Assembly (NCBI GenBank): GCA_905178155.1
Contig: CAJINV010000001.1
Span: 12,635,136-12,699,135, forward strand
DNA length: 64,000 nucleotides
Reading direction: 5' to 3'
DNA from: Amoebophrya sp. A120
Lineage: Eukaryota > Protista > Dinoflagellata
Part shown: positions 6,001 through 34,287 of the stretch, in pieces
Position numbering within the stretch: position 1 is the first letter of the stretch
How the letters are laid out: every line of letters begins with the position of its first letter
Notes under the pieces: generated by a model
The model's input: only the letters and a program-made list of their open reading frames with translations
Databases searched by the model: none
Told to the model about the DNA's origin: nothing
Translations under genes and position numbers: made by a program

Positions 6001-9000
6001 CGGCCATGTATGGGAGTGTCAGGATTGAAATAATTGTCAAAGTTGAATATAGTTTGTCATGCATAAAATGCGACACAGAGACTGACTCTATTGCAGAGGA
6101 CGCAAGGGAGGCTGATTCTAGTGCTGGTAAGGGTCAAGAATTGGGTTGCTGACTAGCATGACAGGGAGGAGTCATCTTGCCCTAAATAGCATGACAGACT
6201 TGCTTCAGAGGCCAGGAAAATTTGTCATGCGCCGATTGGAAAGTGTGGGTCCAACTGGTATGGATTTTATGCATTGCAAATTATTTCAACTTTGTTAATT
6301 TCAATCCTGACAGTTCCATACCATGCTTGTGGCCAGTATCCACCGAGAAAATCAAGGAGATCGTAATTTTAGTTTTGCACTTTATTGTGGCGTTTATTTC
6401 CACTTGCACATGAGCAGCAGCCAGCAGGGAGCGTCGTAAAAACAATCATCAAAATTATCCCGATTTAGTTTTATCAGTCTACTACTATCAGGTGTTGCTT
6501 ACGGTACGTACGTACAACTGCCGGAGCAGCTGGGGAGCGCCGTGCGGTACGATTTGTGCGCTGTGTTGGTCGCGGAAGAGGAAGTTGACCAGGTGCCCGC
6601 ACAGCAGGAAAGTATTACCTCCGGTTCGAAGGGCCAGCGGAGCGAGGACTCGGCGTACGACCAGGTTTCCGACAACTCCTCGCAGAAAGCGAACAGTCAC
6701 AAGCGCGCGAAAATCGAGCCTGGCAACTCTCTTGTGATCAACCGGCCGTCCCCGAAGCAGGCGGAAGCCGGCGACGCGCCCACGCGGTCGACGATGGCGG
6801 CGCACTCGTGCAAGAGCAAGATTTATCAAATGCAAAAATGTCTGGGTCTGGAAGAGTCATGCTGTTTTTGCATGACACAGAAGGTCTGGCATGGAACGTC
6901 TAGCATCACAGGTTTCGAGAAGCTTCCGCAATGCCGAATCCGCATGACAAATCCCCCACTTTGGTCACAGAAAGTGGGTAGCTTTTGCTACCTATGCATG
7001 AGAGATTTTTCAGTGTTCTGAAATGCGCATCACGAGTTTGTATTCTTCCAGACCCAGACATATTTGCAATTTATAAGATTTCCGTATCGACCACGACGGG
7101 GAGCCAGAAGACCGGCGGTCGCTGTGAGTTCCACATCAGCCCGGGGAGCTCCATCGGCCGCGAGCGCACGGGAAGCGGAGGGAACGTCAGTACCGGCAGC
7201 AGCAACCAGGGTGTATCAAACGCAAAAATGTCTGGGTCTGGAAGAATGCAACTTGTAACGTGTATTTCAGAACACAGAAAAGTCTCTTATGCCTACGTAG
7301 CAAAAGCTGCCCACTTTCTGTCAGCAAAATAGGGGACTTGTCATGCGGATTCGGCATTGCGGAAGCTTCTCGAAACCTGTGATGCTAGAGCTTCCATGCC
7401 AGACCTTCTGCGTCATGCAAAAACAGCACGACTCTTCCAGACCCAGACGTTTTTACATTTGATAGGGTGTCGCGCGGTACTACCACAGCCAAGCGGGGAC
7501 GACGAACAACGCACCTACAGGGGAGCACGACCAGACCACTTCTTCCAACAATCAGACCTCGAACTCAAACTCCACGTCCGCCGGAACTTCATTTGACGGG
7601 TTGAGTCGCGCTGCACACCCGCTCTCGATGTCCGTAGACACAGCGTTCCCGCGCGGCACTTCTAGTCGTGTAAACGACAGCACGAGTGTCGTTGTGGTGC
7701 GGCAAAACCAACACGGGAACAACCACGGGTCTAATGCAAGCAGCGACTCGGGCGGAGAGACTGTTGATGGTCGGAGGGATCATAATACTTCCTCGTCCAC
7801 CAGCAGTGTTGCGGCAAGCCTGGACGGCACGGGGTCCGAGGGGACGGCCGTTTCCGCGCCCGCGGTGTTGGACGAGACGCACATGAAGGCTGGATTGATG
7901 GATGCGGACCAGGAGTTGGTGAACTACTTGACGCTGCAGAATTATGGGAGTGTCAGGATCGAAATCGACAAAGTCGAAAAATTTGCCATGCGTAAAATGT
8001 AGGGCACTGAAGGCCTGTAATGGGGAGCAGGCAAATGAGACCGATTGTAAGCCTGTGTAGGGGTATGCAATGTGCTGCCAGCGTAGCATGACAGGAGCAG
8101 TCCTCTTTGCCCAAACAGCATCACAAACTGGATTTTGGTGCTCCCGAAATTTGTCATGCGCCACTTGAAAGCTGGGGCTTCAACTGGTATCGATTTTGTG
8201 CATCACAAATGTTTCGCGTATACTCAAGCCATTGTTACCTCCCTAAAATGAAAAATAAGCCAACAAATAGATGACAGGCGGCCGCGCGTATGGACACCCG
8301 AGCTCCCGCTCTCCCTCCGGTCCAGACGCGATCCGAACTACGCTCGGCGGGACACCAATTGCGTTCACTACCAAGATGTGGATGCCTCTCGGAGAGCTGG
8401 AGAAGCGGGCAAGGGGTTGTCCTGATCGTTGTCATGTGATCTGTCATGCCTGCTGCTCCTTTGCATGCCCCGCCGCAGTCTTCCTCTGCGCTTGGCGAAA
8501 GGGCGAGTCTGTTTCTAATACTGGTTCACTAAGCCGAGGCTTTTCCGGCTCTTTGTTGAGGCGAAGTTTTCGCCTCCGAACGTGGCCTATAGTCACTCCC
8601 TGACTGCGACAGCCGGAATTAGTGGAAAGCGGCTCCGAGTGGCAATTCGATAAGAGGCGCGTAAACAGAAGACGCTCCTCTCCAAATCCGAACTTCCGAT
8701 AAGGACCAGCGACTGCACGGCTCGCCTTGGTCCCTTGCTACGGCCGCGATTCTATGGATACGAGCATAAGGGAAAGCGGAGAGGGGAAACAGTGCCAATC
8801 CCTGCACACAGCTCGCCTTGCTCCCATGACATTGCGGCTGTTTCTCAGCTCCTGACTACGCCGCTGCGCGACTACTTAATCGACATGTGGTATCTTGGTA
8901 AGAAATAGGTAAGTTATTATCTCATAGTGTTGCTTCTGCGTGAGTCTCTACCAAAAAATATTAATGACCTCGATTTAGCTCTGGAATAAACTCTTCAAAT

Positions 9001-11851
9001 AAAATATAAATCAAAGTTCTCGCGTCCCCCCCAGTCCCAATTCACAGAAAGGGCCTCAAGTTTTCAAATCCCACAAATATGTCTTGTAGTCACACTGCGT
9101 GGAAGCTCTAAAACGCCCTTGCTGTAGATCTTCGAGATCTTCATACGGCTTGGGTCTGTCAGCTTCCATATATTAAAAAAAAAAATTTCATAGTATAGCA
9201 GGTCGCTGGGGGTCTGTGTGATTCAGTCACGGACTTCCTGTCTGCTTCTATTACAGTTGTGAGCGCAAAGTATGGTTGAAAAATATATAAGTGCCCGGGG
9301 ATGAAGAAATACTCGCGATGTTTTCGCGGTTCTGACCCTATGCCGTTCCAGCACCTGCGGAGGCTTGCCTCCAAAGCTACGCTGGACAATGGCAATGTCG
9401 GTGCGGTTGTTTTAGCATCACAAATGTTTCGATTTTGTCAATTTCGATTCTGACACTTCCATAAGAATCTGTTCAAGGTCGCTTCGGACAGCAACCTCGC
9501 CGAGGGGTACGGCCCGGCGCGGTCGGGGCTGTTTCCCTTCCCCGAAGACGACAACCCGGGCGATGGTATGCACTGCCAAATGCGGTCTTTGTCGGCGGAC
9601 CAAGCGAACAGTACCGGAGCGCATATTGCGAGCAGCTTTGAAACCACCCCTGAGCCGGAGGTGCGGTCGGAAACCAGCGAGGAGCACTTCGCGGCATTCA
9701 CGACGGCAGACTGCTCGCAGAACGTGCAGATGGGAAAGTCCCCGGAGCTGAATTACAGTTCAGCTGCTAAAGGTGCACGGCGGGGGCCAGGGGGCTCTCC
9801 CGGCTGGGTCGCGCAGTGCGAAAAGAACAAGCGTGAAGAAGAATTCCTTGTTGACGGCAACAACGGCAAGCGACCTGCCTCCGCGGCGGACAACATTACG
9901 ACGTCCAACACAGCCGGCCGCGGAGGTTTCGTGCTGAAGATGTCGAGCGGCTTCTCGTCGATCCGGGACCGCAAGGGAACTGTCGACACGGAGTTTTCGG
10001 CTGGGGACATGACCCCCAGTTCCGCTTTCCCAATCCCTCCCGCGTTCAGCTTCCGCAGCGTGTCCAGCCAGAGCGCCGAGGCGGCGTCCGGCAGCCGCGA
10101 CCCGTTCCCGGACGTCAGCGGTGCTTACCTGTTCCGCTCGGTCACCGACGGGGCGATGCCCGACGAGAACTCCGCCGTCGCTTTCTGGACCGCCCCCTCG
10201 GTCGAGGAACAAATAACCGCCCGTACCGGCTCGGCCGGCGCGGCTTTCATGACGCACGCGGTCGCGGCCCGGAGTCGCAAGGCCGCCGCGTCCAGCGCGA
10301 ATGCAAACACGGGGAGCGGCTGGAACAACTCTAGTACCATCGAGGGGGGTATGGATTGCAAATATCCCTGGATGTCTGGAAGAATACGAACTTGTGATGC
10401 GCATTTTAGAACACAGAACAATCTCTCATGCACGGGCAGCAAAAGCTGCCCACTTGCTGTCACCAAAATGGGGGACTTCTCATGCGGGTTCGGCATTGCG
10501 GAAGCTTCTCGAAACCTGTGATGCTAGAGTTTCCATGCCAGCCCTTCTGTGTCATGCAAAAACAGCATGAACCTTCCAGACCCAGACACTTTTGCATTTG
10601 ATAGGGGGTCCTCAGGATTCAGCTCCCTCTACCGGGATGAGCAGCGCGCACGGGCTATCAAATGCAAAAATGTCTGGATCTGGAAGATTACCAGTTTTGT
10701 TATGCATATTTTGAATGACCCATGATGTGTGTGATGCATGCCCTAGCGTCACAGATCTTTAGAGGACTTTGTGATGCCTCTGCCGCATGAGAAATGCCTT
10801 CTCCGCGTAGCACAAACTGGAGTCCTCTTGCTAGTTCTGCAATACCAATTTTTTCAGATTCCTGAGACAGCATTGCAAATTTAGAATCTTCCAGACCCAG
10901 ACATATTTGCATTTGATACGGACCGTCCAGCGGCCAATCGGCGTCGATGTCTTCCAGTGGCCAGTCCAGCAGTATTACAGTGAAAAGTGCCCCCCACCCC
11001 CAAAGTTGCAAAAATTTGTGATGCGAAGTTTCCAAATAAAACCTTTTTGTCATGCATGAAAGGAATATCATGAATCTTTCTGATGCAGATTCTAGTGTTG
11101 TTTCGCATCGCTTGCATGACAAGCACCGCTCTTGCTGGGATCTTTTGCAATACAAATTTTTGCTATTCACGATCGGAAATCTGTGATGCTGATACATGCA
11201 AGAGGGCGAATGTTTCATTTGGAAAGGTTTGCAATACAGATGCTTTCAAGTTCGGGGGTGGGGGCATTTTTCATTGTAATAAGCAGCAGCTCCTGTTCGC
11301 AGACCGGAGGTGGCAGTAAAACTACTATCAAAGCCGGAATAAATGACCAGGACCACGAAGATCAGGGTCGAGGCGGCCTGACGAGGAAAACGATTGGCAA
11401 CAACGCCTCGAGCACCTCGACCTTTTCCACAACCGCAGGCTCTCAGTTGACCTCGCGTACGCCAACCGGCGGGTCGTCACAGACGCTGCCGTCAAGCTGC
11501 ACAGGATCATCCGCGGCGACACAGCGGATGAGCACAGGGAATCTTCAAAACGGCAGTTCGGTAACTACCTCAGGCTCCAACAACTCGCTCGCGGCCCACG
11601 TTATTCAGGAAAACAACAAGCAATCGGCTCATCAAGCCACATTTCACACATCGTCTTCGGAGTCCAGTCTATTTCCGGTGCATGAAGAGATGCTGCCGGA
11701 CAGTAGTTCCTACGCAGTGTACGTGAGCCACGGAGGCTTGTGGTTTTACTGCAAGGATCACGTCGTCCGACCAACTACAATCGCCGAAGTCTTGCGTCGG
11801 CGCGACGCTGTGCAGGCCTTAGCGTACTTTTTTTGCCGTTTGCTTCGTTGA
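11..11851 (+). CDS. Giant multi-exon protein: low-complexity N-terminus, KH-like segments and a split, probably inactive ubiquitin-specific protease (C19/USP-like) domain; may start upstream of the window
   Basis: ORFs join through GT-AG introns (731-890, 1005-1165, ~1740-1941, 6363-6491, and two less certain ones near 5100-5540) and 9 introners. USP-like boxes occur in order: GDCLNAIVYLLLALPPF, FLSFLLDRLHQEC, APAMLVASIHR, YDLCAVLV, SSYAVYVSHGGLWFYCKDHVV..AYFFCR. KH-like segments: FYIEGRSDNIQKALEGL and SESGIAQ..RIQLKGTRDELDRAHKFI. Confidence 0.6.
2600..2861. mobile_element. Introner E1, TIR family A (TATCAAATGYAAAAATGTCTGGGTCTGGAAG)
   Basis: ~31-bp TIRs; TSD CATCG at 2595-2599 and 2862-2866; removal gives SSPH-R-LSAAAA, joining ORFs 1842 and 2778. 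Confidence 0.95.
4510..4761. mobile_element. Introner E2, family A (near-identical to E15)
   Basis: TIRs; TSD CGGCA; removal gives LQHG-MMFNNW. Confidence 0.95.
6009..6320. mobile_element. Introner E3, TIR family B (TATGGGAGTGTCAGGATTGAAA)
   Basis: TIRs; TSD CCATG; removal gives QAPAM-LVASIHR. Confidence 0.92.
6824..7075. mobile_element. Introner E4, family A (reverse orientation of E5/E7/E20 subtype)
   Basis: TIRs; TSD AGATT; removal gives KSKI-SVSTTT. Confidence 0.95.
7214..7464. mobile_element. Introner E5, family A
   Basis: TIRs; TSD GGGTG; removal gives SNQG-V-ARYYHS, in frame with ORF 7601. Confidence 0.95.
7943..9463. mobile_element. Introner E6, family B, enlarged by a nested 1.2-kb insertion
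   Basis: ~49-bp TIRs; TSD AGAAT at 7938-7942 and 9464-9468; removal gives LTLQN-LFKVASD, in frame with ORF 9568; body resembles E3. Confidence 0.92.
8217..9414. mobile_element. Nested insertion of unknown class inside E6
   Basis: Flanked by a perfect 17-bp direct repeat GCATCACAAATGTTTCG (8200-8216, 9415-9431); removal leaves a 306-bp element similar to the 312-bp E3. Confidence 0.8.
10350..10603. mobile_element. Introner E7, family A with degenerate left TIR
   Basis: TSD GGGGG; body similar to E5/E20; removal gives TIEG-G-PQDSAP. Confidence 0.9.
10656..10918. mobile_element. Introner E8, family A (reverse orientation of E1 subtype)
   Basis: TIRs; imperfect TSD CGGGC/CGGAC; removal gives SAHG-P-SSGQS. 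Confidence 0.92.
10973..11281. mobile_element. Introner E9, TIR family C (TATTACAGTGAAAAGTGCCCCC)
   Basis: TIRs; TSD AGCAG; removal joins QSS-S-SSCSQTGG, in frame with ORF 11132. Confidence 0.9.
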
Positions 11852-12379
11852 AAATAAATGGTTTGACCCGTCTGACGCTAGGTCGGGTCTAGATTATCTG
11901 ACGCCTGCTGGGAAGTCAGTGAATTCGTCCAGCTTCCTGAAATTTCATCAAAATGACAACAAGGTATGTGCACTCTACCTGCGGATTGTAGACGCTGCCG
12001 CTCCTTCATCATCCCGTTCTCGGCACTGGAACAGAGAAGTTGCGGTCCTCGAGGGCGAAAAGACGCAGGCTCGACGCAGGTCCGAACTTCGAAGCTCTTT
12101 TTCATTTCTGGAAATTTTGCTTAATCCTCTTATTATCTGTTTGCACTCGGATAAATGAAATAAGAAATCTTCAGGTTTATGTTGACAACTTTCTCAAACT
12201 CAAACAGAATTGATATTGAATTAACTCCAGCGAAAAATCATTTGATATGCACATTTTGCTTTTAGCTGTTACTCTTGTACCTTGCTGTACTGTTCTTCTG
12301 TAATGGGCTTCTACACGACGACCCATGTTCGAAATTTCGAAAGCTAGATGTATCCGACCTCGTTAGGCGTAACGAGGTA

Positions 12380-13800
12380 TGAAATTTTCACTCTACTGTG
12401 TAAGATTAAGTACACTACGGCGTATACTTTCGGAATACGAAAATTACGTTGGTTACACTTGCTACCAAGCCCGCTTTGTGGAAATCAATGGCAGGTGGGG
12501 TAGTGCATCGGTCGCGTTTCTCATGGCAGATCATCGTAGTTCTTTTCAGTTTTGGAAAGGCAGTATCGATTTTGCAACCGGTACGGCTGGACAGGTGTCG
12601 AGGCGGGTTTTTGGAAGCCGCTTGACATCTCTCAATAAAAGATTGCCAAAACCTAAACGGATATTTCTTTTCGATTGTTGTATACGAGCTAATCATTTAT
12701 CTAATGAGCTATATCCACCTTATAACTTTACTGACATACTGGTACTGCAAGAACATCATGTATCAAAAATTATTTGCGGGCTATTCTCTGGATGGGACGT
12801 ACACGGGGCGGACTGCAATCCGCTGCAGCGCTGCTTTCAAGCACGATTTGCGAAAAGCTGGTGGGCTTGGTGTGCAGCGGCAGATAGGCCGACCCCATGA
12901 CAGCCGTTCAAACGAACCAATGTTAGGCGTGAAAATCAATTTGACACATCAGAGGAACAAGGATGCAGCTGAGTCCCCTAGTATTCACTATGCAGCTCGA
13001 CAAGATGAACAAACTTACGTGACAGTTACACTACTTCCTTGTTATCTGGCGACAATTCGACCTTGCACTGCTGGCCCGTGTGCTGCAGTGAAGGTCACTT
13101 TACTTCTTTTTTTGCTTCTACTTATGACAGTTCGTCAATGAAGTCACTAATGGAACTAGAAACAACCTCCTCCCTGGTTGCAGCTACCAGAACATTATCA
13201 TCAGACTTCGGTAGCCGCAGCCTCGATCAGCGGCTGATATAAGTATGTGTTTTCTTGCTACGTTCACGTATGATGCTCGAATTCGAAAGCAAATGAGATG
13301 GCGGTGTCTTTCACGGTACGAGTGAGACAAAGAAATGTGTGTCTGGACAGGAACTTAATCGTCGCATGGCTGCTATTAAACATCAAAGAGAACAACTGAC
13401 GGGTTTGCTATCCACACCGCGTGGCACCCGTGCTTTAAATTTAATACCTACCGGACTACTTTATTCAACCCAAGAAGAAAAGAATTTGAAACTAAATGGT
13501 CATGACCTTATACTAAGTGAATGAAAGAGTTGGTGGACATTAGAACAAGTGACAATGACTGGCTACCACGATATTAGTGATTTGGTTGTCTTCGACATTT
13601 AGTCAGAAAAACAAAGTATGGTGGATTTGCCCCGTTTTCCGCAGAGTCACTTCTCGATGTTCTACAGTTACCTACTGACTGGGCGAAAAAGACCATAGCC
13701 CTCCGACAGGGTGCGTATGAAATACTAGAGATGAACAAACACTAAGTACCTTTGGATACGTGAAAAGATCTCGAAAAGAACCGTAAGGCAATGGTGCGGT
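12380..13800 (+). pseudogene. Possible heavily decayed Ty1/copia-type pol (RT and RNase H) relic
   Basis: Frameshifted fragments in copia order: FDCCI..YNFTDILV (cf. DPCLY..YVDDILV), MLGVKI (cf. FLGIEI), ADISMC (cf. RPDIS), LPTDWAKKTIALRQG..KH plus TKYLWIREKI (cf. copia RNase H end). Judged by eye; many stops. Confidence 0.4.
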
Positions 13801-14345
13801 TTTGGTTGCGATCACTCCCGCCGCCACAGGAATTGCGTTGTGATTGATGAATACCTAAGTCGGAAGAGCTAAAGGCCCGTTGGAAAGCGAAAGAGCACAG
13901 GAACTGGATCCATTTTTTACTTTTTTCAACTTGAAGTGGTTATTTGCGTGCTAGACCTGTCTTTGCACCGAACTTTCTCTCGAATCGAAAACCAGGCTAG
14001 TTGCTTGATCCAATGATCAAGCTGAAATTTTCATAATCGTAACTAGTGTGACTCATGCCTTTGTCGTTACACGAGAGTCACATTTTTGTGCTGCTAGAGC
14101 GTTTTTTTTGTCGGCAGATTCTTTTGAAACTGCGCGGCCTTCGGTGAAATTTCGTTTCATATTTGTCCGATCCATCAATTTTTTGTTTTTGTAAATAGCC
14201 TCCATTTTACTTAGGTGAGTTTGTAAGATGATGTTGTTGATGTGGTAGTAGCGTTCGCTAGACTTATTTGTGGATATTTCTTTCGACAGCCGCTCTGTAC
14301 GCGTGTAAATAACTTTTTCTCTTGCGGAGAGAAGAGCAGCCAATC

Positions 14346-17300
14346 ATGATGTCTGCAGGGGCGACTAGAACTGCAACCAAGTTGCTTGTCTTTTTCCTGT
14401 GCGGCTGTGGCTCGCAAGTTGATCAGGTCAGCGGGAGAATGATTTTGGACGGTGCGTTGCAAGACGTGGACATGACCGGGACGACGAGCCAAGATCTGGT
14501 AGTAGCACCAGTCATCGATGGTGTTTATCACCGTGACTCGTCTCGAAGAGGTAGAGGTGTCCACCGAGCAGGCCGGCTCTCAGAATCTTCAGACGCGACA
14601 GCGCGTGGATTGGAGCAGGATGCTGGTGCGTCGGCTTTCGGCCGCGGCAGTACGGATGCTTGTGATCCTGCTCCTGCTGACGAAGAGAAAATGGTAGATC
14701 ATGATGTCGACCAGCCGCAAGACCGAAGGCGGCCGTTCGTACACTCCTCTTCCTCCCAGTATTTTCGCCGAGAGCGACTACCAAGTGAAGAGAAGTACTC
14801 CCAACAAGCACTTGATGACACTTGCAGCATCGCGGGCCAGTACAAACCGCTGGGCGGCACCACTTGTGAAGACCTGGCAACGACGAAGGTTCCAGACTTT
14901 CTCTTGTTGAGCGAACCACAACAAGCATCAAGTCCGTCGAGCGGTAGAAGCGCTAGCGAGACGGGTGAAGCGAGTGCACCCTGTTGCAGGAGGATGGTCA
15001 ACCCGCTACTTGGCTGCGTCGGACACCAGCTCAGTGATGTATCCGCCCGCGAAGAATGTATTCATTCGCTGGTCAAAACGCATCAAGTCCCGCCTCCCAA
15101 TTCTTACCGGCTCGTTGCGCTGGGGAATGCCCTGATCACCGACCTTGTCCCCTCCGTTCTTTATGGTGCCGCAGCAGCCGGAGCGGCTTCCTACGTCGCG
15201 GATCAAGCAATTACTCGCTTTGAAAAAGTCCAACCGTACTTAGCAAGCACGGTGGGGTTTCTGGCGACTCAAACTACTTCGGGGAGAAGTCTCAGACAGG
15301 TATGTACTGATTGAAGCATTGTATTGATGAAATCGATCCAGCAATAGAACCGACATCTATGTTTTTTTCGATGAGAACGCGTGCAAGTACTTCCAATGAC
15401 CCACACGGCGGCGCTCTTTGTTGATCTCACAGTAAAAATAATACACATTCTTCAGTTCGCAATGTTGGCCGGAGGAGCGGTCGCAACAGCTTTCGTGATC
15501 TCTCCTCTCTGTCGCGCGTGTGTTCCCGCTCTTGCGAAGTACTTCGGCGCGGCGGGCGCTGCAGAGGTTGGTAAATGGGTCATGGGGGGTGGAGCCCTTG
15601 CGACGGAGGCCTTTTCCCAGTTTTTCGGAAATGTTCAGGACGACATGACCGCCAAGAGAGCGGAAGCAACAACGAACGAGCTCTCCGAGGCGCTGGTCAA
15701 ATTTTTGAGGAGTTTGGAGCCCACGCTTCTGAAAGCCGCTGGCGTGGCGGCCGGCGCGAAGCATCTGTGGCGCAGCCCTGGCACCGCGTTCTCTCGGACT
15801 TGCGCCGCGTGGCACAACGTCGTAAGCCCGCCGGAAGTTCTCCGACAAACGTGGTCCGTGACAAGACAAAAAGAGCGGAGACATCGAGAATTATTGAAGA
15901 TGGGAAAGAATGATCCTCCCTCCAGTAGAACTACAACGCGTGGTGCGTCGTGCGCGTCTTCGGGGTCGTTCGCTGCTCGCATCGCGCGCGGTTGCGCCCG
16001 GCGTCGCCGCAGCAAGAAACAGGTGGACGCATCCGACGTTGCGGACGAGCTAATCGAACAGATGAGCAACATGACCGTTTCCGCCCCCACTGTCGTGCCA
16101 GGCACACAACAGCAACCTCCGGCGCCGCAAGAAGTCGCTGATGCAGCGGAAGAGTCTCTGGTGCCGATGAAAGAGCAGGCCCCTGCTTCGCGAAATGAAC
16201 CTGCCTTGGTGGAGGCAAAAACAGTGGAAAGCAGAGACATGGTTAACAGTGCAAGAGGTCGACTAGGCGGGAACGCGCAGAGACGCGGCCCCAGCCCTGA
16301 CTCCGGTTCCACTACGGCCGGGGACGAACTGTCGGATGGTGCATCGATTGGTACCTCGCCATCGCGCAGTGTCAGCCCGATGCCGCGACGTGCGGGGGAT
16401 GGAGAGGAGGCGCGGCAGCTGCATCTGCGGCCACTGTCGGGCGTACGCGAAGCTACAGGGAGGTCCTCTGGGTCGCCTCTCGGAGCGGGTGTCCTGACGC
16501 CAAACTTCGGCGCGATCGCCAGTGGGATGGAAAGCCCGGGGCAAAACGTTGGTTCGTCGCCGTTCTCTTTTGGAAGAGAACCAATCGACGTTCAAAGCCG
16601 TGTGCTGGAACAGGGGGGTGGTAGCATTCCTGCCGACGCAGAGGCAGACACGGAAATGCGCGATCGTGAAGTAGAAGACCCGCCGCGCGCCGACCCTGAT
16701 GAATCTCCGCTGCGCCAAATATTAGAACCCTCCAGCACAACTGGCACGGTTTCGGTGAACACGGAGGACGCGCCGATGGTTGGCCCAGAGGACCCCGCGG
16801 ATCTTGCTGATGGTGAAGACAACGCGTTGGATGGTGAAATCGAGCAGCGGGAGCAGCAGTCGCCGCAGTCGCACGCCGTCAGCGGGGACCTGCTTCGTCG
16901 GACACCTCCCAGCATGGATGACGATAATGCACCAGTTAGTCGCCCTCGCGCATGGAGGGAAGTAGATCACCAGGACGAAAGCGACAGCGAAGTAGAGGAT
17001 CATCCGGGGTCCTCGAATTCTGAAACAGAGGACGAGGAGATCGAAGAGGATTTTTCGGCCTCGTCAAACGGATCTCCTGCAACAGACGATGAAGACGAGG
17101 ACAACCACAACCACAACTTCAACCTTGCGTTTTTGCCCGAGGTGGAGCGGGCGGCACTGAAAATCGCGGGTTTCGTGTCGCTTTCAACGCCCGGCCGCGT
17201 GATCACGCGCGCGGCGCACTTGCGGGTCGCAGACGCGGTGCGCGTACTGCTCCGCCCCGAGGAACAATACCACCAACGACCCGGCAGCAGGAACGAGCCG

Positions 17301-21426: not shown

Positions 21427-24232
21427 ATGGCTGGTTTTCGCAAGAAGAATCAGAACAAGAAGAACGCCAAGGGTCTGAAGACCGCCGGCGAAGGTCCTCA
21501 GCACCAAAGCGAGCAGAAACCTGCTGATTCTGCGGGCCAGAAAAGCGCCGGTTACGAGTTGAAAAACCCACTGAAGGGGTACAACAAAGTGGTCGAACAG
21601 CAGAACAAACCCTTCGAAGCCTACTACCGCGCGCAGAACATTTGCGAGAATGAGGAAGAATTCCAGGTCTTCATGCAGCACTGCCGGAAAGGTCTTCCGA
21701 GCGGCATGCGTGTCAACGGAACTCTGGGGAAGCATGGAAGAAATTTGTGGAACCAGTTTCAGTCTTTGCTGGAGCTTCCGGAAAACAAGGAGTTGACACC
21801 AGCATACAGTGAGGTTGTTGCAAAAATGAAGGAGGAAAATTATAACGGGAACGAGCAAACAGCGGCCACCGCGGAATCGTGGATGCTCCGCCCGAAGCCA
21901 CTGGCCTGGTACCCCCGGGAACTGGCGTACCAGTTTGACTTTTTGGATGCCAGGCAGATCAAGAAGGACAAGAAATTCAAGCAGTTGAAGGAGTTTTTGA
22001 TGAACCGCGAGCAGTACGGTGCGCTGCAACGACAGGAGACCGTTTCCATGATTCCGCCGCATCTGTTGCGGATCCAGCCGGACGACCTCGTGTTGGACAT
22101 GTGTGCGGCGCCGGGCAGCAAGACCTGTCAAATGCTCGAGCAAATGCACTGGGAGGCTTGCGAGAATGGTATTGTATGTGTGTTGCGATAATTAATGAAT
22201 GCGAGTAGTATAATAATTCCGAATCCACCGATGGTAGATGATGTGGCAACTTTCATTTGATCTTCTTCTTTCCGATAAAATCAAGCGCCCGATATCAAGT
22301 TTTCGAAAGCCACTACGTCTTTCTACTCGACATCATAAAAACACCACCACAGCCCGTGGCCCCGGCGAATTTTCAATCGGGAAAGGCGGCGTTCTGGCGA
22401 ACGATGTGGAGTGGAAGCGCGCCAACATGCTGACCCACCAGGTGCAGCGGATCGGCTCGTCGGGTGTTGCGGTGTTGAATACGGACGCGCAGTTCTTCCC
22501 CAAGATGAAGCAAGCCGATGGCACGGTCATCCAGTTCGACAAGGTGCTCTGCGACGTGCCGTGCAGCGGAGACGGCACCATCCGGAAGACGCCGAACATT
22601 TGGCGCACCTGGACGCTGTCCGACGGTCTGGGGTTGCACTTTCGCCAGCTCGCGATTCTGTGGCGCGGCCTAGACGTGTTGAAAGTTGGGGGGCGGCTGG
22701 TTTACTCCACGTGCTCCTTGAACCCGATGGAAAACGAGTCTGTCATCAACGCGTGCCTGGAAAAATGCAACGGATCTGTGAAACTCGTGGAAGACAGCGA
22801 CTTGCTGGAGTCCAGTGGGAAGCTAGTCGCCAAGAAGGGGTTGACGACCTGGAAGGTGCCGCATCCGAAGCTTGCAACTACTAAAAAGAAGAACGACAAG
22901 GAAGGTACTAGCACTTCTGCAGATCAGGCTGCGACTACAACAGAGAAACCAAATGAAGCGGCTGATGCGGGTGGTGCAAAAGTAGAAGCCGAATCACCCG
23001 AAGCAGAAAACTTGGTTTCCTTCTTCGACAGTTACGGGGACGTGCCGACGATCTATAAGGAGAGCAACAAGATTCGGAAAACAATGTTTCCGCCGGAGAA
23101 GGGGAATAAGGAGTTGGAAAAAACCAGGCGTTTTTTGCCGCATTTGATGAACACCGGTGGGTTTTTTGTCGCGATTCTGGAGAAGACCGCGGAGTTGCCG
23201 AGACAGTTGGAACGGGTGAAGAAGCAGGAGTTGTGGCACGAAATGCAAAAAGAGAAACAAGCAGGAGCTGCGAGTGACAATGGCACCCCAGTTGCAGCAG
23301 CAGCAGCAGCAGTCGAGAAGAACAAAACTGAAGATGCGACATCGAAAACTGTCGACACGACAACTTCGCCATTAGCGACCCCCGAGACCACGAAGACCAG
23401 TAGCGACGCCGAGCCGCCGACGAAACGCGCGCGAACGGAATCGGAACAAGCGAAGCAGGAGGTGGAAACAAATACAAAGTCGCAAAATCATGACTCTGCA
23501 GCTACGGCTGAATCAGAAAATAAAGCGCCACCCGCACAGAAACAAGAGAACCCAGAGGACCACTTTTACCCGATCGACGACGAAGACTGGGCGTCGATTT
23601 GCAACTACTACGGATTCCCGGACGCCGCGCGAAGCCACTTCTACAAGCGTCCGCAGGTTCACGGCGACCACAAAATTTACGGCATTTCCGAGAAGCTCCG
23701 CGACGTGGTGAAGTGCTGCCAAAACACGGGTAGTACGAAGGTGGTTTCCTGCGGTGTGCGCTGCTTTCAGATGCTCAACAGCTTCGGGGGGAGCTGCACC
23801 TGGCGAATTACGCAGCAGGGATTGCTGTTTCTGCTCAAACTCGGATTGCATGCACAACGAATCCTCGAGGTAGAGCCCGCAATCATCGACGAAATCCTGG
23901 AAAAGCGCGAAATTCCGACCTCGACGGTTTTGGAGCGGAAGGAAGAGTTTTTCCAACAACCGGTTTTGACCGAAACGGAAAAGTTCGTGCGGGCCGAAGC
24001 GTTGTTGAAGTCGGAAAAGGAGGAAGCGGAGGATGGTGCGGGTGTAGAGAAGAAGAAGATTCCGGTCGTCGGACAAGGAAGTTACGTACTGCACTGCGCG
24101 AAGTACGAGCTGCACATTTGCGTTTTGGTGTCGCGAAACTTTTTCACTCTGTACGTGGACAAGCAAGAGGCTAAGGCCCTGGCGGCTTGCCTGAAGGTCG
24201 GACCGGATCTCAAGGTCGAGATGGGACTGTAA
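21427..24232 (+). CDS. NSUN2: tRNA (cytosine-5)-methyltransferase, NSUN2/Trm4 family
   Basis: Motifs RQETVSMIPP, VLDMCAAPGSKT, LAND, FDKVLCDVPCSGDGT, VYSTCSLNPMENE, NTGGFFVA; in-phase GT-AG intron 22169-22352. Confidence 0.93.
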
Positions 24233-24937: not shown

Positions 24938-27900
24938 ATGGAGGCGAAGCCGTCAAATTTAAAAGACGTGGAGCCGAGCGAGGGGACCGCAGCTCTGAAG
25001 CTTGCGCCCTTCGCAAGTCCACCGGGGAAGACTGCACTACATCTCGGAAACTTGTTTACCGAAGAGCAGAACCTGGAGATCGCGAGGCTGGGGAAGAATC
25101 TGAGGAAGAAGTGTGTCAAGTCCACTCTCCAGGAGATGCAACAATTTTTGGATCAAGTTCAGGAGGAACACGGCGAAAGGTTTCTCTTCGCAGTCCTCCA
25201 AGCCGGTAATCGTAATGCGAAGCAGGCAATTCACTTCGCGTCGCAGCTCGCGAGCCATGTGGAGGTCTTGCGGCACCTAATCCAACGTCGTGCAAACGTA
25301 AATGCGTGCACCGTGCGGGGACACACGCCATTGCTGTACTTGAAATTCGTTTTTTTCAATGCTCCCCAAAGAAATTTGAATTTGTTTAAAAAAGAATTTT
25401 GCCGTCGTGCACGTTGGACGATGATAAACCCAAACTTTTTTCCCTCCTTCGCACAGGTTCGCCGCCGGACGGGGTCGGTCGGAGCACGTGCATCTGCTGC
25501 TCGACTGTCGTGCGAGTCCTCTAGTCCGCACGGTCTGCGGTGATACTGCCGCGGGGATGGCGGTCGGGCGCGTGGATGCGCAGACGCTCCAACGTCTTCG
25601 CACCGCGGAGGAGCAGGGGGTCCGCCCAAGATTGGCCGACAGTCCCTTGCCGTATCAGTCGCCGATTCTTCTTGTCGATGATGTGTTCGGCGGAACAAAC
25701 AAGCAGGATGACGACCAAACCGATGCTGTAAATTCGGGACGTGCATCAAATCCTGACGACGCATCTGAAGCCGCCGATTTTCTTCTGGCTCAGAACCATC
25801 CAGACGTGATCCGTCGCCCGCGGACCGACTCTTCGTTCGACTACAGCGGCGATTCGAATTTGCACCCGCGCACGAAGGGGAAGAAGAAAAAAGGGCCTGC
25901 GGACAAAAGAGCTATGCTGATTCAGAACAAAGGAGTATCCTGAGTAAAAACGTACCCACACCAGAGTCAGGATGGGGATTTTGCAACACAAACCTAGGAG
26001 CTTTGTGAGTCACGCATGACAAGTTGCGCGATGCAGTGTAGTGCAGGTTAGCAAGTGCAGCCGCGTCACAGATTCGTCTGCTCATCCTGTTCACACCATC
26101 ACAAATTCCAAAACACGACTGGAAATGGCTCTCATGGGGATGCGCATTACAAGTCTTCCTGTCTTTGCAAGTCTGCAATACAACTCTGGTGTGGGTACGT
26201 TTTTACTCAGGATAAGGAGCTGCTGCCAGGAAGAACTCGGACTCCGACACTTCGACTTCTACCACGGGCGGCACCGGCTCCGCGCGTAGTAGCAACGACC
26301 TGGAGCAGGTAGAGCAGCAGAGTCAGGAAAGCGGAGATTTGTCGCCAGCAATGTCATTTGCTCCTGCGCCAAGAAGGGACCAAGAGAGTCAGGAAGCTGC
26401 GAGGGTAGAGAAGCCAGGGTTCTTGTCGCCGCGTGAAAATGAACTACTACCCACATCGCAGGCCGCAGAGCGAATCGAGAGCAAGGCCGACGACGTCGAC
26501 GCGCAGAGCAAGGCCAATCTCCACAGCTACCTGCTACGTGAAGCGACTTCCACGCCAAAAAAGAACACCGCCGCACCAGCAGCATCTACAACTAGGTTGG
26601 ATGATGATCTTTCGTCCGGGGAGCGAATGCGGGGAGATACTACTCGCGAGGACGTCGAGGTCGAGCAGCCGATCGACAGGGAGGAGGTAGAGGAGCTCGT
26701 TATGGGCACCGTAGACAGCAGCAAGTACTTGGACTTTCGGTGCGACCCGGATGCTATTGCAGCGCAAAAGGAACACATTGTGCAGTGCAAGCACTGCCGG
26801 AAAAATCCGTCCAACTGGCGTCACCTTTTCGGGGACGACGAGGCAGGATTTGCGGCGTTGGTTTGCAAACTAGCCCAGTACAACAAAGCGGAGAACTATC
26901 CGGAAGAAAGTGCGGATGTGATCGTCGGAATCAACGCGACGAGGGGTCAACATCAGGACAATTTCTTCATCAATAGTCGTCGCACCGCGGCCGATTCGGA
27001 CATGCCAGACACGGTATCTCAAGAGACGTTCTTCAGCTCTTTTTGTGCGACAACTACGACTTCTGAGGACATGCGGTCCATCGCGATAAAGTTCCTTCGG
27101 GACTTTTACGCCGTCGACACAAGACCTTTCGCGATGGTGATGCAACGGTTCGCGAAAACGCTGGGCGAGGCAGTGCGACGACTCATGGATCGTGCTAGCC
27201 CCGCGGTCTCTGCGTCTGAAAAGGCTGCAGAGCCAATTTTTATCTACATGTCGGCTTTTTTTCAAGAGCCCAACTTTCTCAAGAATCACCCCGAAGACCG
27301 AAAGTGCGTTCGTGTCTGCTGTGCTGCCGCGTTGGAAGCTTTGAGGCACGCGATTGTTCCGCGTGCTGTCTCATCGCCGACGAAAGGAGCGTCATTCGGC
27401 GAAGACACGGGAAACGCGGAGGATGGTCAGCTCAAGAGTGAAGCAAGGGTTGAGGAGGTCTCATCTACACCCTCCGGATTGGGAACTGTCGACGATGCGC
27501 CGTCCGGCGAATGCTTTTACACCGCACCTCTGCGGGGCGACATTCCGTGGTGGGTGGCTAGGATGCAGGACAAGGAAAGGTCTGCGATCGACGGGCCGAT
27601 CTGTTTGCCAGTGGGTCGTGACAAGACAACTGAATCAGGAGCAGGAAAGCAGACACACGTTAATGAGAAGATGAACAAAGCAAGGAAAGAATACACGACG
27701 CCCCGCTTCGCCGCAGTTTCGCTCGCTGAAGTGCATAAGCGCTGCGACTGCGCTGCTACTGCACTGGAGGTACTCGGAATTCTGCAGCTGGAAGCGCGTC
27801 CGAGCACTGCTGAAGACGATGGCGCTGCAATGGAGAAAATCTGGAGCGATTTTTTGCTGGCGGAGCGCTCCTCAGCCGATCAAAACCGCTGCCGTCGCTG

Positions 27901-29275
27901 GTTGCGATGCTTGGAACTCGTCTGCGGTAGTTCTACGACAACTTCTGCAGAAGTTGAGGCAAAGTTGAAAACTGTCGTTTCCCTTGCTGTACAGTCGGGG
28001 TTGGTGCCACAGCTTTTACGAAGTGCAAAGCTCAATGGCGAGCACGCCTGGCACGAGCGGCTGCGCGAAATGCTGGAGACGGCTGAAGAAAATAATGACG
28101 CAGGTGATCATGATCCTGATGCAGGTCCGCGTGTCCTGGATCGGAGGAAAGCAGCGGCCAAGCAGCGGAGACAGCAGCGGCGCCATGAACAAGCAGCGAG
28201 GAGAGAAGAGGAAGATGAATTTGAAGCAGCTGCGAACCGAGCCGGCAATAATGAGAGTGAAGACGAGGAGTACAATTCTGAGGAAAAAATGATCGACGAT
28301 GCTGGTGCACAGGAAAGCAACCGGATCCCGCACGCGCGGTTGGAAGGTCCCATTACCTGGATCGATACAACCGCCGGGCTCGAAGAGATGCAGGGCCTGC
28401 TGAGAAGACAGTACGAAGCATCTTCATCACGCAAAGTCCATGTCGGGCTTGACACAGAGTGGGGATACAGTAAGTCGGGAACAGCCACGAAGTGCTGCAT
28501 GATGACGCTGCAGGTGTCTTTTCTCGACGCAGGGAATAGTAGCAGTAGTGGGTCCTCAGGATCATGGCACAACTACGTTATTGACACGAGCCCGGACGCC
28601 GCATTGAGAAGCGACGAGTACTCCCGTGCCTTGGAAGAGTTTCTCGTCACTGATCTCATGCATCCGTCCTGCCTGCCATTAGGTTTCAGTTTCGGCCACG
28701 ACATACCGAAAATAGCAGCTCTGCTGCAGTGGTTACGAAGTGGTAACACAAATAGTAGACCTGCTGCGGCCAGCACCGAGGAAAAGGACAAACTGGACGT
28801 AGATGTTTTTGTGTGCAGATTCCGCCAGCAAGTGCTCGATGTCCAATATCACACAGAAAAGAGCTGGCAGGGCATATTTGTAATGCAAAAATATATACAC
28901 AAAAATCTGCATTGCATATCCGAAACAGCATGCTATGGGGCCACCCATGACAAATTCTTGTGTGTGTTTGTTTTTGCATCACAGATATGCCCTGCCAGCT
29001 TTTTTCTCTGGGATATCCAGCAGATCTACACGCAATGGCAGGAGAAATCGCAGCGATTGATGCAGAAAAACGTCAAGCGTGGAGCGACGCCCGGGTTGCG
29101 TGCAGTGACCGCCGCCTTGCTCGGGCAGGACTTGAGCAAGAAGGAACAGCGGTCGGACTGGGCACTGCGGCCTTTGACATCGCGGCAGTTGCAGTATGCA
29201 GCGCTTGACGCACAAGTACTGGTGCGGTTAGCGGATATCATACTCAGCAGCTCCTCCAACAAAGCAGATCACTGA
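24938..29275 (+). CDS. Ankyrin-repeat plus DEDDy 3'-5' exonuclease (EXD3/Mut-7-like) protein
   Basis: Ankyrin: AIHFASQ..HVEVLRHLIQRRANVNACTVRGHTPLLFAA across intron 25336-25456. Exonuclease: VGLDTEW, GFSFGHDI, GLRAVTAALLGQDLSKKEQRSDWALRPLTSRQLQYAALDA. Introners E10 and E11 removed. Confidence 0.8.
25936..26214. mobile_element. Introner E10, TIR family D
   Basis: Perfect 32-bp TIR TATCCTGAGTAAAAACGTACCCACACCAGAGT; TSD AGGAG; removal joins ORFs 25488 and 26339. Confidence 0.95.
28847..29015. mobile_element. Introner E11, TIR family E; in frame and stop-free
   Basis: Long imperfect TIRs (~60 bp); TSD TCCAA/TCCAG; element plus TSD is 174 nt; removal gives VLDVQ-QIYTQW. Confidence 0.88.
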
Positions 29276-29783
29276 GGGCGGTGTTGAGATGCGTGGAATT
29301 TTTTCAAATTAGCAGAACTTTGTGAATCAAAATGTACCTCATTTTGCACAAGAACTAATGTACCCTTTTCGGAATTTCTACTTCATGAAGCCGAAGTCTC
29401 TACTTTTGGTGCGAATGACGCTGACATTTTTTGTAGAATTTTTGATCTATGTTCTTTTGGATTCAGGTTTTTGCGCATATGGGTCGACCGGCGACCGAAA
29501 ACCCTCCTGCCTCTTAGGCAGCAGAAAGTGCACGAGTTCATCTTTCGTGTTGTTCTTTACGACTGCGGCACATATAGAGAGGCGTTGTTATCCCCCTTTT
29601 TGCAGAGAGAAGAGCGCGCTTCAAAGAAAGCACCATGAGAGACCTTTCAAGTGGACGCTGCCGTCTTACAAAGACAATCGTGCTACTGTACGATCGTATA
29701 AGTAGAAGTTGGAGTCCTAATGCATTTCCCCATCACAAACACAATCACAAACTTCTCAGACACAACCTTTTTTAGAATAAATC

Positions 29784-30856
29784 ATGCCCGAAACGAGTTT
29801 TCTGGCCGCGAAGGCCACGGCCACTGCCCGGAAAACCGCGAGCGCTGACGCCAATGCGGCAAGTCTTCAGGAACTAGCAGGCTTCGGCATCGGTGCGGCA
29901 AGCGCGGCGGTTGATACTCAACCGTCTGTCCACACGGCATGGCAGCTCTGGCAGGATGGAAAACTGTCGAAGAAGCAGTTCGTCGACGCGTTAGGAGGCG
30001 AGTTGCCGCTGAACACCCTGAAATTGCTCAATCAAGTCGACTGCACATACGCCGAGTTTGTCAAGTCTTTTGGTAAGAAATGAAAAAAATCGATGTTTGA
30101 GCCTTTCTAAGCGTTGCAAACAAAGACCAACTCCAGCTTCTTGCGATGAATTATTTGTTTCCATCTTTCTAGTAAAAAAAAAGAAAAACGAACTACACCA
30201 GGTCGAGAAAATTCGTTCGCGTCTCAGCGCGCAGGCGGCCGCACGCAGTATCGCGACTCGGCGGGTGCGTTAATTTCGGATAATTCAGCTCCGGCCCCAG
30301 CGGTGAGAGTGATCGAAGAAACCGCAAATTACCGCCGTGCCAGTTCCGATGTATCCCGCATGGCCGAGAGGAGTGCGACCTTCAAGGTGCGCAAAGCAAA
30401 CGACGTCTCGCGAAATAACCCGCTGATTGGTGGCAGTGCGCTAGTTGCAGACGAGGCAAATCTGTCCGAGCAGGAGGCGCACATGCAGAGCGCGGTATTT
30501 TATCACGGTTTCGAACAGGACAAAAATTCTCTCTGGGATGTAGATCTTGTGACGTTTTTTGATGAAAGTGCCACACTTTGTATAATGAATCACACAAGCG
30601 CCAAAACCAAACTCAGATCCGCATGTTTCTAGACGGCGAGTTAAAATCGACGGAAATGGGGGAGTTTGTTTGCTCCCTACGCAACTACACGTACAACCCG
30701 CGGCAAGCAACGAGTGGTATGCCGCTCAAAGTGCACACTTTACTGGAAAGGCATCAAGTGAATGGGCCGTTCGGCTTCCGGTACTTGGCACAAACTTTCC
30801 GCGATATCCTGCTTGAGACAGAGCCGGCACCGGCAGCGCCAACAACGGAGGCTTGA
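29784..30856 (+). CDS. Hypothetical small multi-exon protein
   Basis: ORF pieces 29784, 30303 and 30578 separated by AT-rich GT-AG introns (e.g. donor at 30495); exon structure only partly resolved. Confidence 0.5.
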
Positions 30857-31428
30857 AATTTTGTTTTAGGATTTCCGATTATGTGTAGTTCAAAGCCGCT
30901 GGTGTGGTCTGCAGACGAAATCTGAGTACACTAGCCAATATACAAGATGCGCTAAAACTACGGAACGACTGGTATCTCTAATCAAAATGGTTGTCAAACA
31001 ATTTCATAAAGAAGAAGAACATCTTCAGCGCCTCAGCATTTGCTTTCCCGATATTCAATTCTATTCTCATTGATGTACTTCTACAGCAGGAGGATCCTCC
31101 TGAAATTTGGCTGTGACGTTTCGCAGCCCAGGTAGTGTGGTCGAGTTCTTTTCTCGTCTGCTTCGAAAAGATTTTTCTGGCTCGAGGAGTTGAGCGGTAT
31201 GACTATGAGCGAATGTATTGCATTGAGCGCGAAAAGTGCCAAGAAGCATACAGTCTTGAGAATTTTCAGAAATTCGCAAAATTTTTGAGTACTATGCAGA
31301 ACGCAAAGGAGAGTCGGCTGGCAGTCTTATGAACTCAAACTAAACTTTAGTTTTGGGAAAAATCGAGAGAGCAAAATTATCCTTCGATTGAGTGAGTGCG
31401 ACCGGAATTTTATCAGAAGGCGGGCAAA

Positions 31429-34287
31429 ATGGCGGTGAAACAGCCATGCGGTCCGGCTGCGACGTTGATGCTCAACGATGCGCTGACCAGGATCATTTAC
31501 CGCGATGGCAGTCGGGGTCTGCGCCACGAGAAGGAGCAGGGCTTGGCGCCGATGGGAACCGAATCGGTTTTCGGTGATTTTCCCACAGGCTACGGGTCGG
31601 TGAAGAAGAAACCCTACTACGAAAAGCCGCAAAAGTTCGTCAAGACCACCGATGGTAACAAACCACCGCCCCGCGCGGGTGCCACCGACCGACGACCCGT
31701 GAGCCTCACCGAGTTCCGCCGATTCTACGATCGAGGAGACCTGCCAATCCAAATTTTCCATGGCGCAGCAGGCGGCAAAATCGCGTGGAAGGTATGATAC
31801 TTTTTTCAGGACAAGGGGGTGTATTGTACAACTTTAAGTGGCTGCTGTACTTAAGTAGGTACCTGCGCCCGTCGAAGATCTTCTTCGGTATTTAGGACGT
31901 GCTCGTACTGATAGCACCAAAGAGGCCTCGATATCGGGATGCGAATTACTATAGCATGATGTGAAAAATACAAACTGAACAGGTCGAAATTGAGAAGCTG
32001 GATTACCACCACTACCTGCCGTATCGCCAGAAAAAACTGTTTCACTGTAAACTTGTAATGGCAGGAAATGAAATGCATTTCACAACTGTTTGTCTTGCTA
32101 CGCATGCAAGACAGTGGATTTTCAGCTGTGTTTTCCCTTAGGAACCTTGCATGGCAAATTTTCTCTGTCATGTAGAACAAACTTGTGATGCAAAACCTGC
32201 AAAATCTTTACAGTGAAGCATCTTTTTCGTACGATATGCCGATTTTCGTGGACGGCCTCCGCGAACGGGAAGATCCCTACCGATTTCTGGCGGTGCAAGG
32301 CGTGTACGACATGCTCGAGAAGGGCGGATCGAAGATCTTACCGGTAGTGCCGCAGTTGATCATCCCAATCAAAACGGCCTTGAACACACGGTGTGAGGAG
32401 ATCGTGTGCACAACGATCAAGGTCCTCATCCAGCTCGTGCTTTCCGCGGACATGATCGGGGAAGCGCTCGTGCCGTACAGAATTGGATTGCGAAATTGCT
32501 TCTACTCCGCAGGTCTATCTTCATGCGTCTAAAAAAAAAAGAGGAAACAAGAATTTGTGAATCCGCCCGTCGTTTTCGATAAAATTGAAAAACACAAAAC
32601 GTCTCAGGTACTACCGTCAGATTCTGCCAATTTTCAACATCTTCAAGAACCACCAGAAGAACCAGGGGGACCAGATGGACTACGGACAGCGGAAGCGTTT
32701 GAATCTCGGCGAGCTGGTCAATGAAGCTTTGGTATTGAGAGGAAAAATCCCCCCTCCCCATATCGAAAAGGTATCTTTCCGAAAATTTCTGTTGCTGATT
32801 TGTGGCCACGAATCACATTTGTCTTGCAAGAAGACAAGGGCAGAAGCTTCCGCCCCATTATGGAAGCGATTTGTCATGCTGTTGGGCCTAAAGGTCAGCC
32901 GTTTGCAATGCTGACCAACTAGATCCATACGCCCCTCCCTAGCCTGGGGATCTGGCCGTAATGCCTTCCTGCAATACAGTTCTGATTTGTGTACGCAAAT
33001 CCAGCATCACAGATTCAGCTCCGCGAAGACCATCAACTAAAGGGAACCCCATACAACACCAGACCTAGGTGGAGCGTTCGTTCATCGCTGAAGCTTTAGA
33101 ATAAAAATGTACCAAGCAGCGACATAGAATAACATTGTACCTAATGAGCTGCGTTGCTGCCTAGTCCCCTGGTAATAGTAAACTCAAAAAATGAAAACAT
33201 CGACCTGGTATTTCTATTTTCTCACGGACCCCTTCCTCAGACCAATTTTCGTGCGAAAGAAGAAAAATCGTCACTCGTGAAATCGTAAGCGTTGCATTCG
33301 AATCGTAGACAGGCTCGTAGTTGTTCCTTCGTTCTCGAAACAGGTGGTGCTTGGTTGCTTTCGGTCTTTTTCCCAAAAAAGAAAAACCATCAACAGGGAC
33401 AGGGTGAAACTGAGGAAGGAGGAAGAGGATGATGTAAAGAATAGAGTGCAGATTTTCCTCTAAGCTGTGTGGCGTTTACAAGTGTAAGAAGACAGATTTC
33501 CAAGGATTTTGTAGGAAAGTACACTAATATTGAAATGCTAGCACTACAGAAGCGAAGGGTCTTCTAGTCTTACTTATCAATGTCGTATTGCACTGATAGT
33601 TTCCTTCTTTATCCACGGACTTTTACTGTGTTTACTCTCAAAGGAATTGATGCTAAATATCCGGACTGTAGAATGTGATTGTAGATGTTGATACATGGAT
33701 TACAAGATGTATGGGCAAGGTGTCACTGCGTAACTCTCCGCCACGTTGGCGAGTGAAAAGCTCGTTGCTACTGCCTCGGCCGAAATGGATAGAAAGTGAA
33801 AAGATTGTGGATGGAGATGCAGATCGCGGTTTGCAAATGTGGACGCAGGTCGGGAATGGCGAAGAGGAAATGAAGAGGAGGGGAGCAGCAGCATTTATCC
33901 AAAAGGTAGGGCCTAAGGCCACGGGAACGCCGAGCACACCCGCGCACTTCTTCGTGAATCGCCCACCGCTTTTTGTGTGTCGAATCGAAAAAGAAAAATA
34001 ACAAAAAAAAAATCAAAAAGAAAAGTAAAACAATTAAAAGAAAAATCAAAAAAAATCAAAAGAAAAATCAACAAAATCAAAAGAAAAATCAAAAGAAAAA
34101 ATCAAATCGACGCGCCAGAAGCCTAGCAAAAAAAAAAAAATCCAGCATCACAGATTTCCTCTTTGATATGGGGAGGGGGGATTTTTCCTTTTCATATTTG
34201 GAAATTTTTGAGACCCACGGTGGGGAGGACGCTTTCATTAACATCAAATACATGATTCCGTCCTACGAGTCCTGCGTGCTGTCGTAG
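31429..34287 (+). CDS. PACRG: Parkin co-regulated gene protein (axonemal inner junction), copy 1
   Basis: [85 protein letters not shown]; introns 31792-31982 and 32475-32607, plus E12 and E13. Confidence 0.95.
32022..32236. mobile_element. Introner E12, TIR family F
   Basis: Imperfect TIRs (TATCG..AAAAA..TTCACTGTAAA); TSD TGCCG; removal gives HHYLP-IFVDG; site is empty in paralog 2. Confidence 0.92.
33016..34140 (+). mobile_element. Nested 5'-truncated non-LTR retroelement-like insertion, possibly RLE clade
   Basis: TSD (AAA)TCCAGCATCACAGATT at 32997-33015 and 34138-34156; A13 tail at 34128-34140; frameshifted motifs [23 protein letters not shown] and [10 protein letters not shown]. Confidence 0.7.
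33988..34106 (+). repeat. A-rich degenerate tandem repeat (AAAATCAAAAG-like)
   Basis: Repeated aaaatcaaaaga(a) units just upstream of the poly(A) tail. Confidence 0.85.

Follow-up and report, generated by a model that had tools for sequence, protein, structure and literature searches.

Retroelement-like inserts at a motif common to introner families of Amoebophrya sp. A120

The known targets of site-specific retroelements are listed as ribosomal RNA, spliced leader, tRNA and U2 genes, transposons, microsatellites and telomeres (PMC4640811). The closest precedent for the present case is Tx1L of Xenopus laevis, which inserts into the non-autonomous piggyBac element Tx1D (PMC4494074, PMC1950540, PMC6719617) and belongs to the Tx1 clade, which encodes an apurinic/apyrimidinic endonuclease (APE) (PMC4640811, PMC4494074). 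Here, we analyzed a 64,000-nucleotide stretch of the dinoflagellate Amoebophrya sp. A120 (GenBank assembly GCA_905178155.1, contig CAJINV010000001.1, positions 12,635,136 to 12,699,135 of the forward strand; hereafter the window), in which two introners, E6 and E13, each hold a long insert bordered by a duplication of introner sequence. We consider it somewhat probable that several families of non-autonomous non-LTR (long terminal repeat) retroelements insert at an introner motif by sequence-selective target-primed reverse transcription (TPRT).

The likeness to Tx1L and Tx1D lies in a retroelement at a specific sequence inside another transposon, a position that in Tx1D is said to do little harm. 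Tx1L is autonomous, with a characterised endonuclease and a single target family, whereas the Amoebophrya inserts are non-coding and fall into several unrelated families with several registers (positions relative to the motif). The target also differs from Tx1D in being a short motif that extends across introner families, lies in coding genes and is removed by splicing. Register and orientation at the target were fixed in a Tx1L-like manner, in small numbers: -7 in 3/3 inserts of one class, and +1 in 2/2 of the L007/L048 family and in L047 (L numbers denote loci of a second assembly, described below). By analogy, the inserts may be said to work like Tx1L in Tx1D; the analogy does not make them members of any clade. 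R2 and Utopia resemble them in having a multicopy target and a fixed 3' with a variable 5' junction, and reptile Utopia families have 20-bp target-site duplications (TSDs) (PMC4640811); unlike these, the Amoebophrya inserts examined contained no restriction-like endonuclease (RLE) domain and no 5' hepatitis delta virus (HDV)-like ribozyme. Tourist miniature inverted-repeat transposable elements that insert into Tourist elements (PMC6719617) show the same transposon-in-transposon preference but use a DNA transposon mechanism, not one that leaves long duplications with tails.

Introners of A120 are reported to have inverted repeats that begin with TAT, seven variable bases and then at least three A's, with direct repeats at their borders (PMC7789003). 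Out of 26 candidate rows in the window, 21 short elements were kept, with TAT...ATA terminal inverted repeats (TIRs) and 5-bp flanking repeats (4-5 bp matching). TAT-N7-AAA termini were present in E13 and most of the window elements; family B, which includes E6, shares the TAT termini, has a 5-bp TSD and lacks the A-stretch. Judged by termini and border repeats, both hosts are classed as A120-type Amoebophrya introners. They exceed their relatives by ~1.2 kb, and their outer TIRs and TSDs are undamaged. The features are as follows.

7943..9463, strand not assigned: introner E6, family B, with TAT...ATA TIRs and a 5-bp TSD, 306 nt without its insert, within a + strand reading frame.
8200..8216, + strand: left copy of the 17-nt duplication, which starts with the motif (register 0..+17 or +1..+17).
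8217..9414, strand not assigned: insert 1, 1198 nt, without a long open reading frame (ORF) and without a tail.
9415..9431, + strand: right copy of the 17-nt duplication, at the inner end of the right TIR.
32733..34196, + strand: introner E13, family G, within the final coding exon of one PACRG copy, with a 5-bp TSD, 323 nt without its insert, spliced out.
32997..33015, + strand: left 19-nt duplication copy, with register -7..+12 relative to the G of the motif.
33016..34137, + strand: insert 2, 1122 nt, non-coding, with a 3' A-rich array at 33994-34106 followed by a poly(A) tail; its body is about single-copy.
33037..33184, + strand: 5' stretch of insert 2; the genome has a diverged relative of it at another place (contig depth 51 vs. 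~25 in the flanks; boundaries inferred from contig ends).
33846..33979, + strand: bin with the insert 2 3' segment common to many other loci (mean summed depth 397 vs. ~25, which is not a copy number).
34138..34156, + strand: right copy of the 19-nt duplication, immediately 3' of the poly(A) tail.
36030..37421, + strand: PACRG paralog with no introner at the E13 site, the empty-exon control.

A sequence-only reading of the window had placed inserts with flanking duplications in E6 and E13, at the inner end of the 3' TIR and ~33-59 nt from the terminus. Both repeats proved exact (17 and 19 nt), and their right copies lie 33-49 nt (E6) and 41-59 nt (E13) from the right terminus. Insert 2 ends at 34137 when three A's are counted as duplicated and otherwise at 34140. 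In the insert-free relatives of both host families (47 genomic contigs among the data), the duplicated stretch is present singly, so the flanking repeats are true duplications of host sequence. The two inserts had also been called unalike, and sequence comparison indeed found no similarity between them. Insert 1 has no poly(A) or tandem tail on either strand, no TIR and no ORF, and a spliced-leader-like word near its start was judged to be chance, with no exact match to the spliced leader sequence. The body of insert 2 was near single-copy depth in a genomic run (33.9 vs. ~25), and a 23-nt pattern from its shared 3' segment gave 0 matches in metagenome contigs.

Splicing of an insert-bearing introner, expected from the sequence-only reading, was observed for E13. 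RNA-like contigs from runs X3 and X4 (2/2), whose RNA status is a program's guess and which also skip canonical introns, skipped E13 plus one 5-nt repeat exactly, joining 32727 to 34197 (1469 nt); a raw-read RNA run, X9, gave 1 read. E13 is removed from mRNA together with its insert. E6 is predicted from its reading frame to be spliced as an intron: when it is omitted, the frame is open for 159 codons on the upstream and at least 200 on the downstream side, and E6 itself holds 16-21 stops per + frame.

Both window duplications include GCATCACA, which occurred 21 times within the window introners (5,347 nt in the 21 elements after removal of the inserts) vs. twice elsewhere (56,297 nt). For 17-mers drawn at random from E6, the probability of holding it is p = 0.069, and for 19-mers from E13 it is p = 0.039; two random windows from different introners have a common 8-nt word with a post-hoc p of ~0.017. 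The E6/E13 pair on its own is suggestive of motif targeting and not decisive. The two duplications have unlike registers, 0..+17 in E6 vs. -7..+12 in E13, so a single fixed-cutting enzyme cannot account for both. Across the window and loci L001-L151, GCAT(C/G)ACA followed by (A/G)(A/G)T recurs in nearly all introner families and on both strands, with ~5.4 motif copies per introner when one mismatch is allowed. The motif was counted 991 times inside and 63 times outside introner-like DNA, which is ~16-fold by raw count with the outside DNA three times larger.

A scan of metagenome contigs with the family-A TIR 20-mer yielded at least 151 loci in a single assembly, spanning 365 kb, 80 of them with long flanks; the TIR pattern had 0 matches in viral contigs. 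Introners of this second assembly are up to 96.8% identical to those of the window, which would make its source the same or a close species, and its insertion events are at other loci. Among the matches listed, 250 distinct elements with TIRs and TSDs included seven of at least 380 nt, four of which held real inserts. A split-alignment survey gave 70 candidate rows, of which 11 were kept (two in the window); rows were dropped by eye where separate introners had been paired or the gaps were of introner DNA. L067 and L138/L139 were added from open-edge surveys, and family-A ends comprised 300 paired, 33 near an edge and 41 orphans, mostly with TIR indels. Of the long elements, L065, L146 and L067:2491-3521 were discarded as pairings of separate introners; L087, L058, L062 and L025:4338 were not used, being chimeric or members of other subfamilies.

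Among ten independent inserts with two junctions, six overlapped GCAT(C/G)ACA with at most one mismatch (2.14 expected, P = 0.0074) and five overlapped it exactly (1.04 expected, P = 0.0013). Duplications of at least 8 nt were on the motif in 6/6 independent inserts (1.60 expected, P = 0.0003). A tail-anchored scan of 94.5 kb of introner-like and 287.5 kb of other DNA returned three rows, one a false pairing and the others real poly(A) inserts with duplications; both were in introners and on the motif, and none was found in the 287.5 kb of other DNA. The insertion pattern is real and reproduced at independent loci, in small numbers. The earlier idea that inserts use an introner motif as their target was supported by the second-assembly inserts, which were enriched on the motif and reproduced both registers. 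The motif itself was redefined: GCATCACA is held by both window duplications, and the independent inserts use GCAT(C/G)ACA and did not reproduce GCATCACA(A/G)AT. Restriction of the target to the right TIR did not hold, since three events use internal motif copies; the other six copies used are subterminal (44-52 nt from an end). The use of both kinds makes the motif, and not the TIR position, the common factor.

Duplication lengths in the window and independent inserts were 17, 19, 19, 21, 13, 16 and 8 nt, and the junctions fell into classes. Inserts of the poly(A) class (insert 2, L074, L050) join 4-7 nt upstream of the motif, at -7 in 3/3 and with a far junction at +12 in the 2/2 that could be measured. 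L074, in a host family other than that of E13, combines a poly(A) tail with a 19-nt duplication at -7..+12, which is the geometry of E13; L050 repeats the tail-side junction of both, with its other end past the contig edge. A resemblance over 22 nt between insert 2 and that of L074 was dropped as not significant against shuffles. With any A-run as the null, the chance for a poly(A) element ranges from 0.046 (exact, runs of at least 3) to 0.133 (runs of at least 4, within 2 nt) per event.

Inserts of the +1 class (L007, L048, L047 and probably insert 1) join at the motif start with duplications of 8-21 nt. L007 (976 nt) and L048 (339 nt) are homologous (70%), tail-less and in the same orientation, with 3' ends whose similarity exceeded 300/300 shuffles, and L048 retains both ends of the L007 family. 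They join at +1 of different internal motif copies, with duplications of 21 and 13 nt, where a given register has a prior of 0.011 per strand-position. Other copies at random sites had been named in advance as the outcome that would speak against targeting; in this family, both are on the motif. L047, with a (CATT)n tail, joins at +1, and its relative L113 joins inside an antisense one-mismatch copy, to which tail microhomology could contribute. L047:684-903 and L113:1-268 form a second homologous insert family, with ~45 nt of 3' end in common before (CATT)n or (TCAAT)n tails. Insert 1 probably fits the +1 class when read on the + strand, and the two window inserts appear to represent two different classes with different registers. 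Tails were present in insert 2, L074, L050, L047, L113, L025, L067, L071 and L138.

Short inserts with (ATG)n tails (L025:2864-3046, L067:243-379 and L138/L139) lie within introners and off the motif, with little or no duplication; they have the look of loosely targeted retroelements that prime on CAT. At L026:2983-3715, a family-A introner is interrupted at position 67 by foreign sequence that is GC-rich and internally repeated, with one junction captured. L093:227-271 is a filler flanked by an 18-nt duplication ending with the motif, and looks like templated break repair.

Several points weigh against motif-directed retrotransposition. Four of the ten independent inserts (L025, L067, L071, L145) are off the motif, as are the one-junction cases L026, L010 and L119, and adding L138/L139 as an eleventh, off-motif event gave P of ~0.015 and ~0.003 with rounded-up nulls. 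The 45-nt filler of L093 is locally templated and no retroelement, yet it duplicates the motif; leaving it out gave 5/9 on the motif (P = 0.016). Exact GCATCACA was absent from all the independent duplications, it had been broadened to GCAT(C/G)ACA once the data had been seen, and the few events were selected by eye without blinding to the motif. Of the 630 family-A runs of at least four A's, 84 (0.133) lie 5-9 nt before a motif, and given this A-run background the two poly(A) matches have a conservative p of ~0.02. Insert 1, L007, L048 and L072 are tail-less. The non-introner DNA scanned is largely likely coding, so absence of inserts there may reflect selection. No reverse transcriptase (RT), APE or RLE domain was found in 91 ORFs of 14 inserts or junction flanks (insert 1 not included), with one weak, irrelevant Pfam match, and a strict, home-made and unvalidated descriptor found 0 HDV-like ribozymes in 13 inserts or flanks.

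The off-motif (ATG)n inserts, two of which join at CATG outside the motif, would be expected if retrotransposition were only loosely specific and the pattern came from motif density and survivor bias, with poly(A) priming at A-runs, (ATG)n and (CATT)n priming at CAT beside the motif, and only intronic insertions surviving. The ~5.4 motif copies of each introner and the 13% of family-A A-runs that precede the motif would suit this explanation. It leaves unexplained the tail-less homologous L007 and L048 at +1 of different copies, the same +12 far junction in two host families and the enrichment above host-specific nulls, and we regard it as unlikely. Convergence of unrelated families on one motif with different registers could instead mean that the motif is a true hot spot, where a motif-binding protein, such as an introner transposase or host factor, nicks DNA or tethers diverse retroelements, which would then not have to encode a specific endonuclease. 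Copies of the motif are multiple and almost restricted to introners, and the non-retroelement filler of L093 duplicates it. Small indels in introners were seldom near the motif, however (7/39 vs. 14.9 expected), and this depletion argues against a generic break hot spot; registers, moreover, are specific to families and not common to all. Nicking or tethering by a motif-binding protein seems to us rather improbable. For the tail-less inserts, including insert 1, the lack of tail, TIR and ORF (shared with L007, L048 and L072) could also point to break-repair captures or to some unknown DNA mobile element whose insertion creates long duplications. This is very improbable in our judgment: the duplications differ in length (13 vs. 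21 nt) while one end is fixed, L048 keeps both ends of the L007 family, and the other classes do have poly(A) and tandem tails.

Motif-directed retrotransposition, built on the observed duplications, tails, motif enrichment, recurring registers and orientation, and E13 splicing, would begin with a sequence-selective nick at or beside the GCAT(C/G)ACA common to introner families, where TPRT would copy the element in. The tails and the long duplications of variable length point to TPRT, as does the tail-side junction, which TPRT leaves fixed while the far one varies. As the inserts encode nothing recognisable, they would be non-autonomous passengers of several non-LTR retroelement families, dependent on an autonomous partner and an element-encoded endonuclease; A120 is reported to hold non-LTR retrotransposons (PMC7789003). 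Once in an introner, an insert would be removed by splicing with its host intron, as found for E13.

The sequence-only reading had assigned the inserts to RLE-clade elements, and this assignment found no support. CRE/SLACS elements are RLE-type target-specific non-LTR elements, and R2-type RLE elements have a 5' HDV-like self-cleaving ribozyme. No RT, zinc knuckle or restriction-like endonuclease was found in the inserts examined, none of the findings marks the endonuclease as RLE, and the closest precedent, Tx1L, belongs to an APE-encoding clade. An RT/endonuclease motif scan of the window and loci gave nothing convincing, and two hammerhead-core word matches were found in the ribozyme scan of inserts and flanks. 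Searches of the window for tRNAs and Rfam families gave no match, and none near the Rfam threshold; a tRNA-, 7SL- or 5S-derived head of the type found in short interspersed nuclear elements is unsupported for the window inserts.

The accessible parts of the A120 introner accounts (PMC7789003, PMC12130899) describe neither an internal common motif nor nested targeted inserts. The A120 intron analysis kept introns of 40-1000 bp, a filter that E6 and E13 would not have passed. Peptide matches to long interspersed nuclear elements are recorded in the 2025 dataset for three A120 introner families whose class is TIR DNA or unknown (PMC12130899), and nested inserts could explain these matches. In the literature searched, chiefly open-access, no earlier report of introner-targeted retroelements was found. 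The spliced-out introner target, the motif that extends across introner families and the several insert families with registers of their own appear to be new.

Further features were observed in the window. The tandem PACRG paralogs (31400-34290 and 35330-37420) carry different introner sets, 32022-32236 and E13 in copy 1 and 35367-35628, 35679-35936 and 37096-37358 in copy 2; the difference implies that all were likely gained after the duplication. A 169-nt introner-like element at 28847-29015 is stop-free within ORF 26216-29275, which has a 3'-5' exonuclease match at its end; its length plus TSD is a multiple of 3, and it could be translated if retained. Pfam matches indicated an NSUN2-like RNA methyltransferase at 22238-24232 and a cold-shock-domain protein at 56575-58764.

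If motif-directed retrotransposition is true, introners join the known safe-haven targets of site-specific retroelements, with several families converging on one 8-nt motif, and new programmable-insertion enzymes would be predicted in an alveolate. The motif is also a testable candidate for the signal by which non-canonical introns are mobilised or spliced, as a transposase or splicing signal. It is possible, though we hold this with some doubt, that several site-specific retrotransposon lineages of Amoebophrya independently evolved to recognise an introner cis-motif, for which tens of thousands of spliced-out introners would be a standing target. Retroelement in introner in gene would then form a third tier of parasitism, and GCAT(C/G)ACA may be the functional core of these non-canonical introns.

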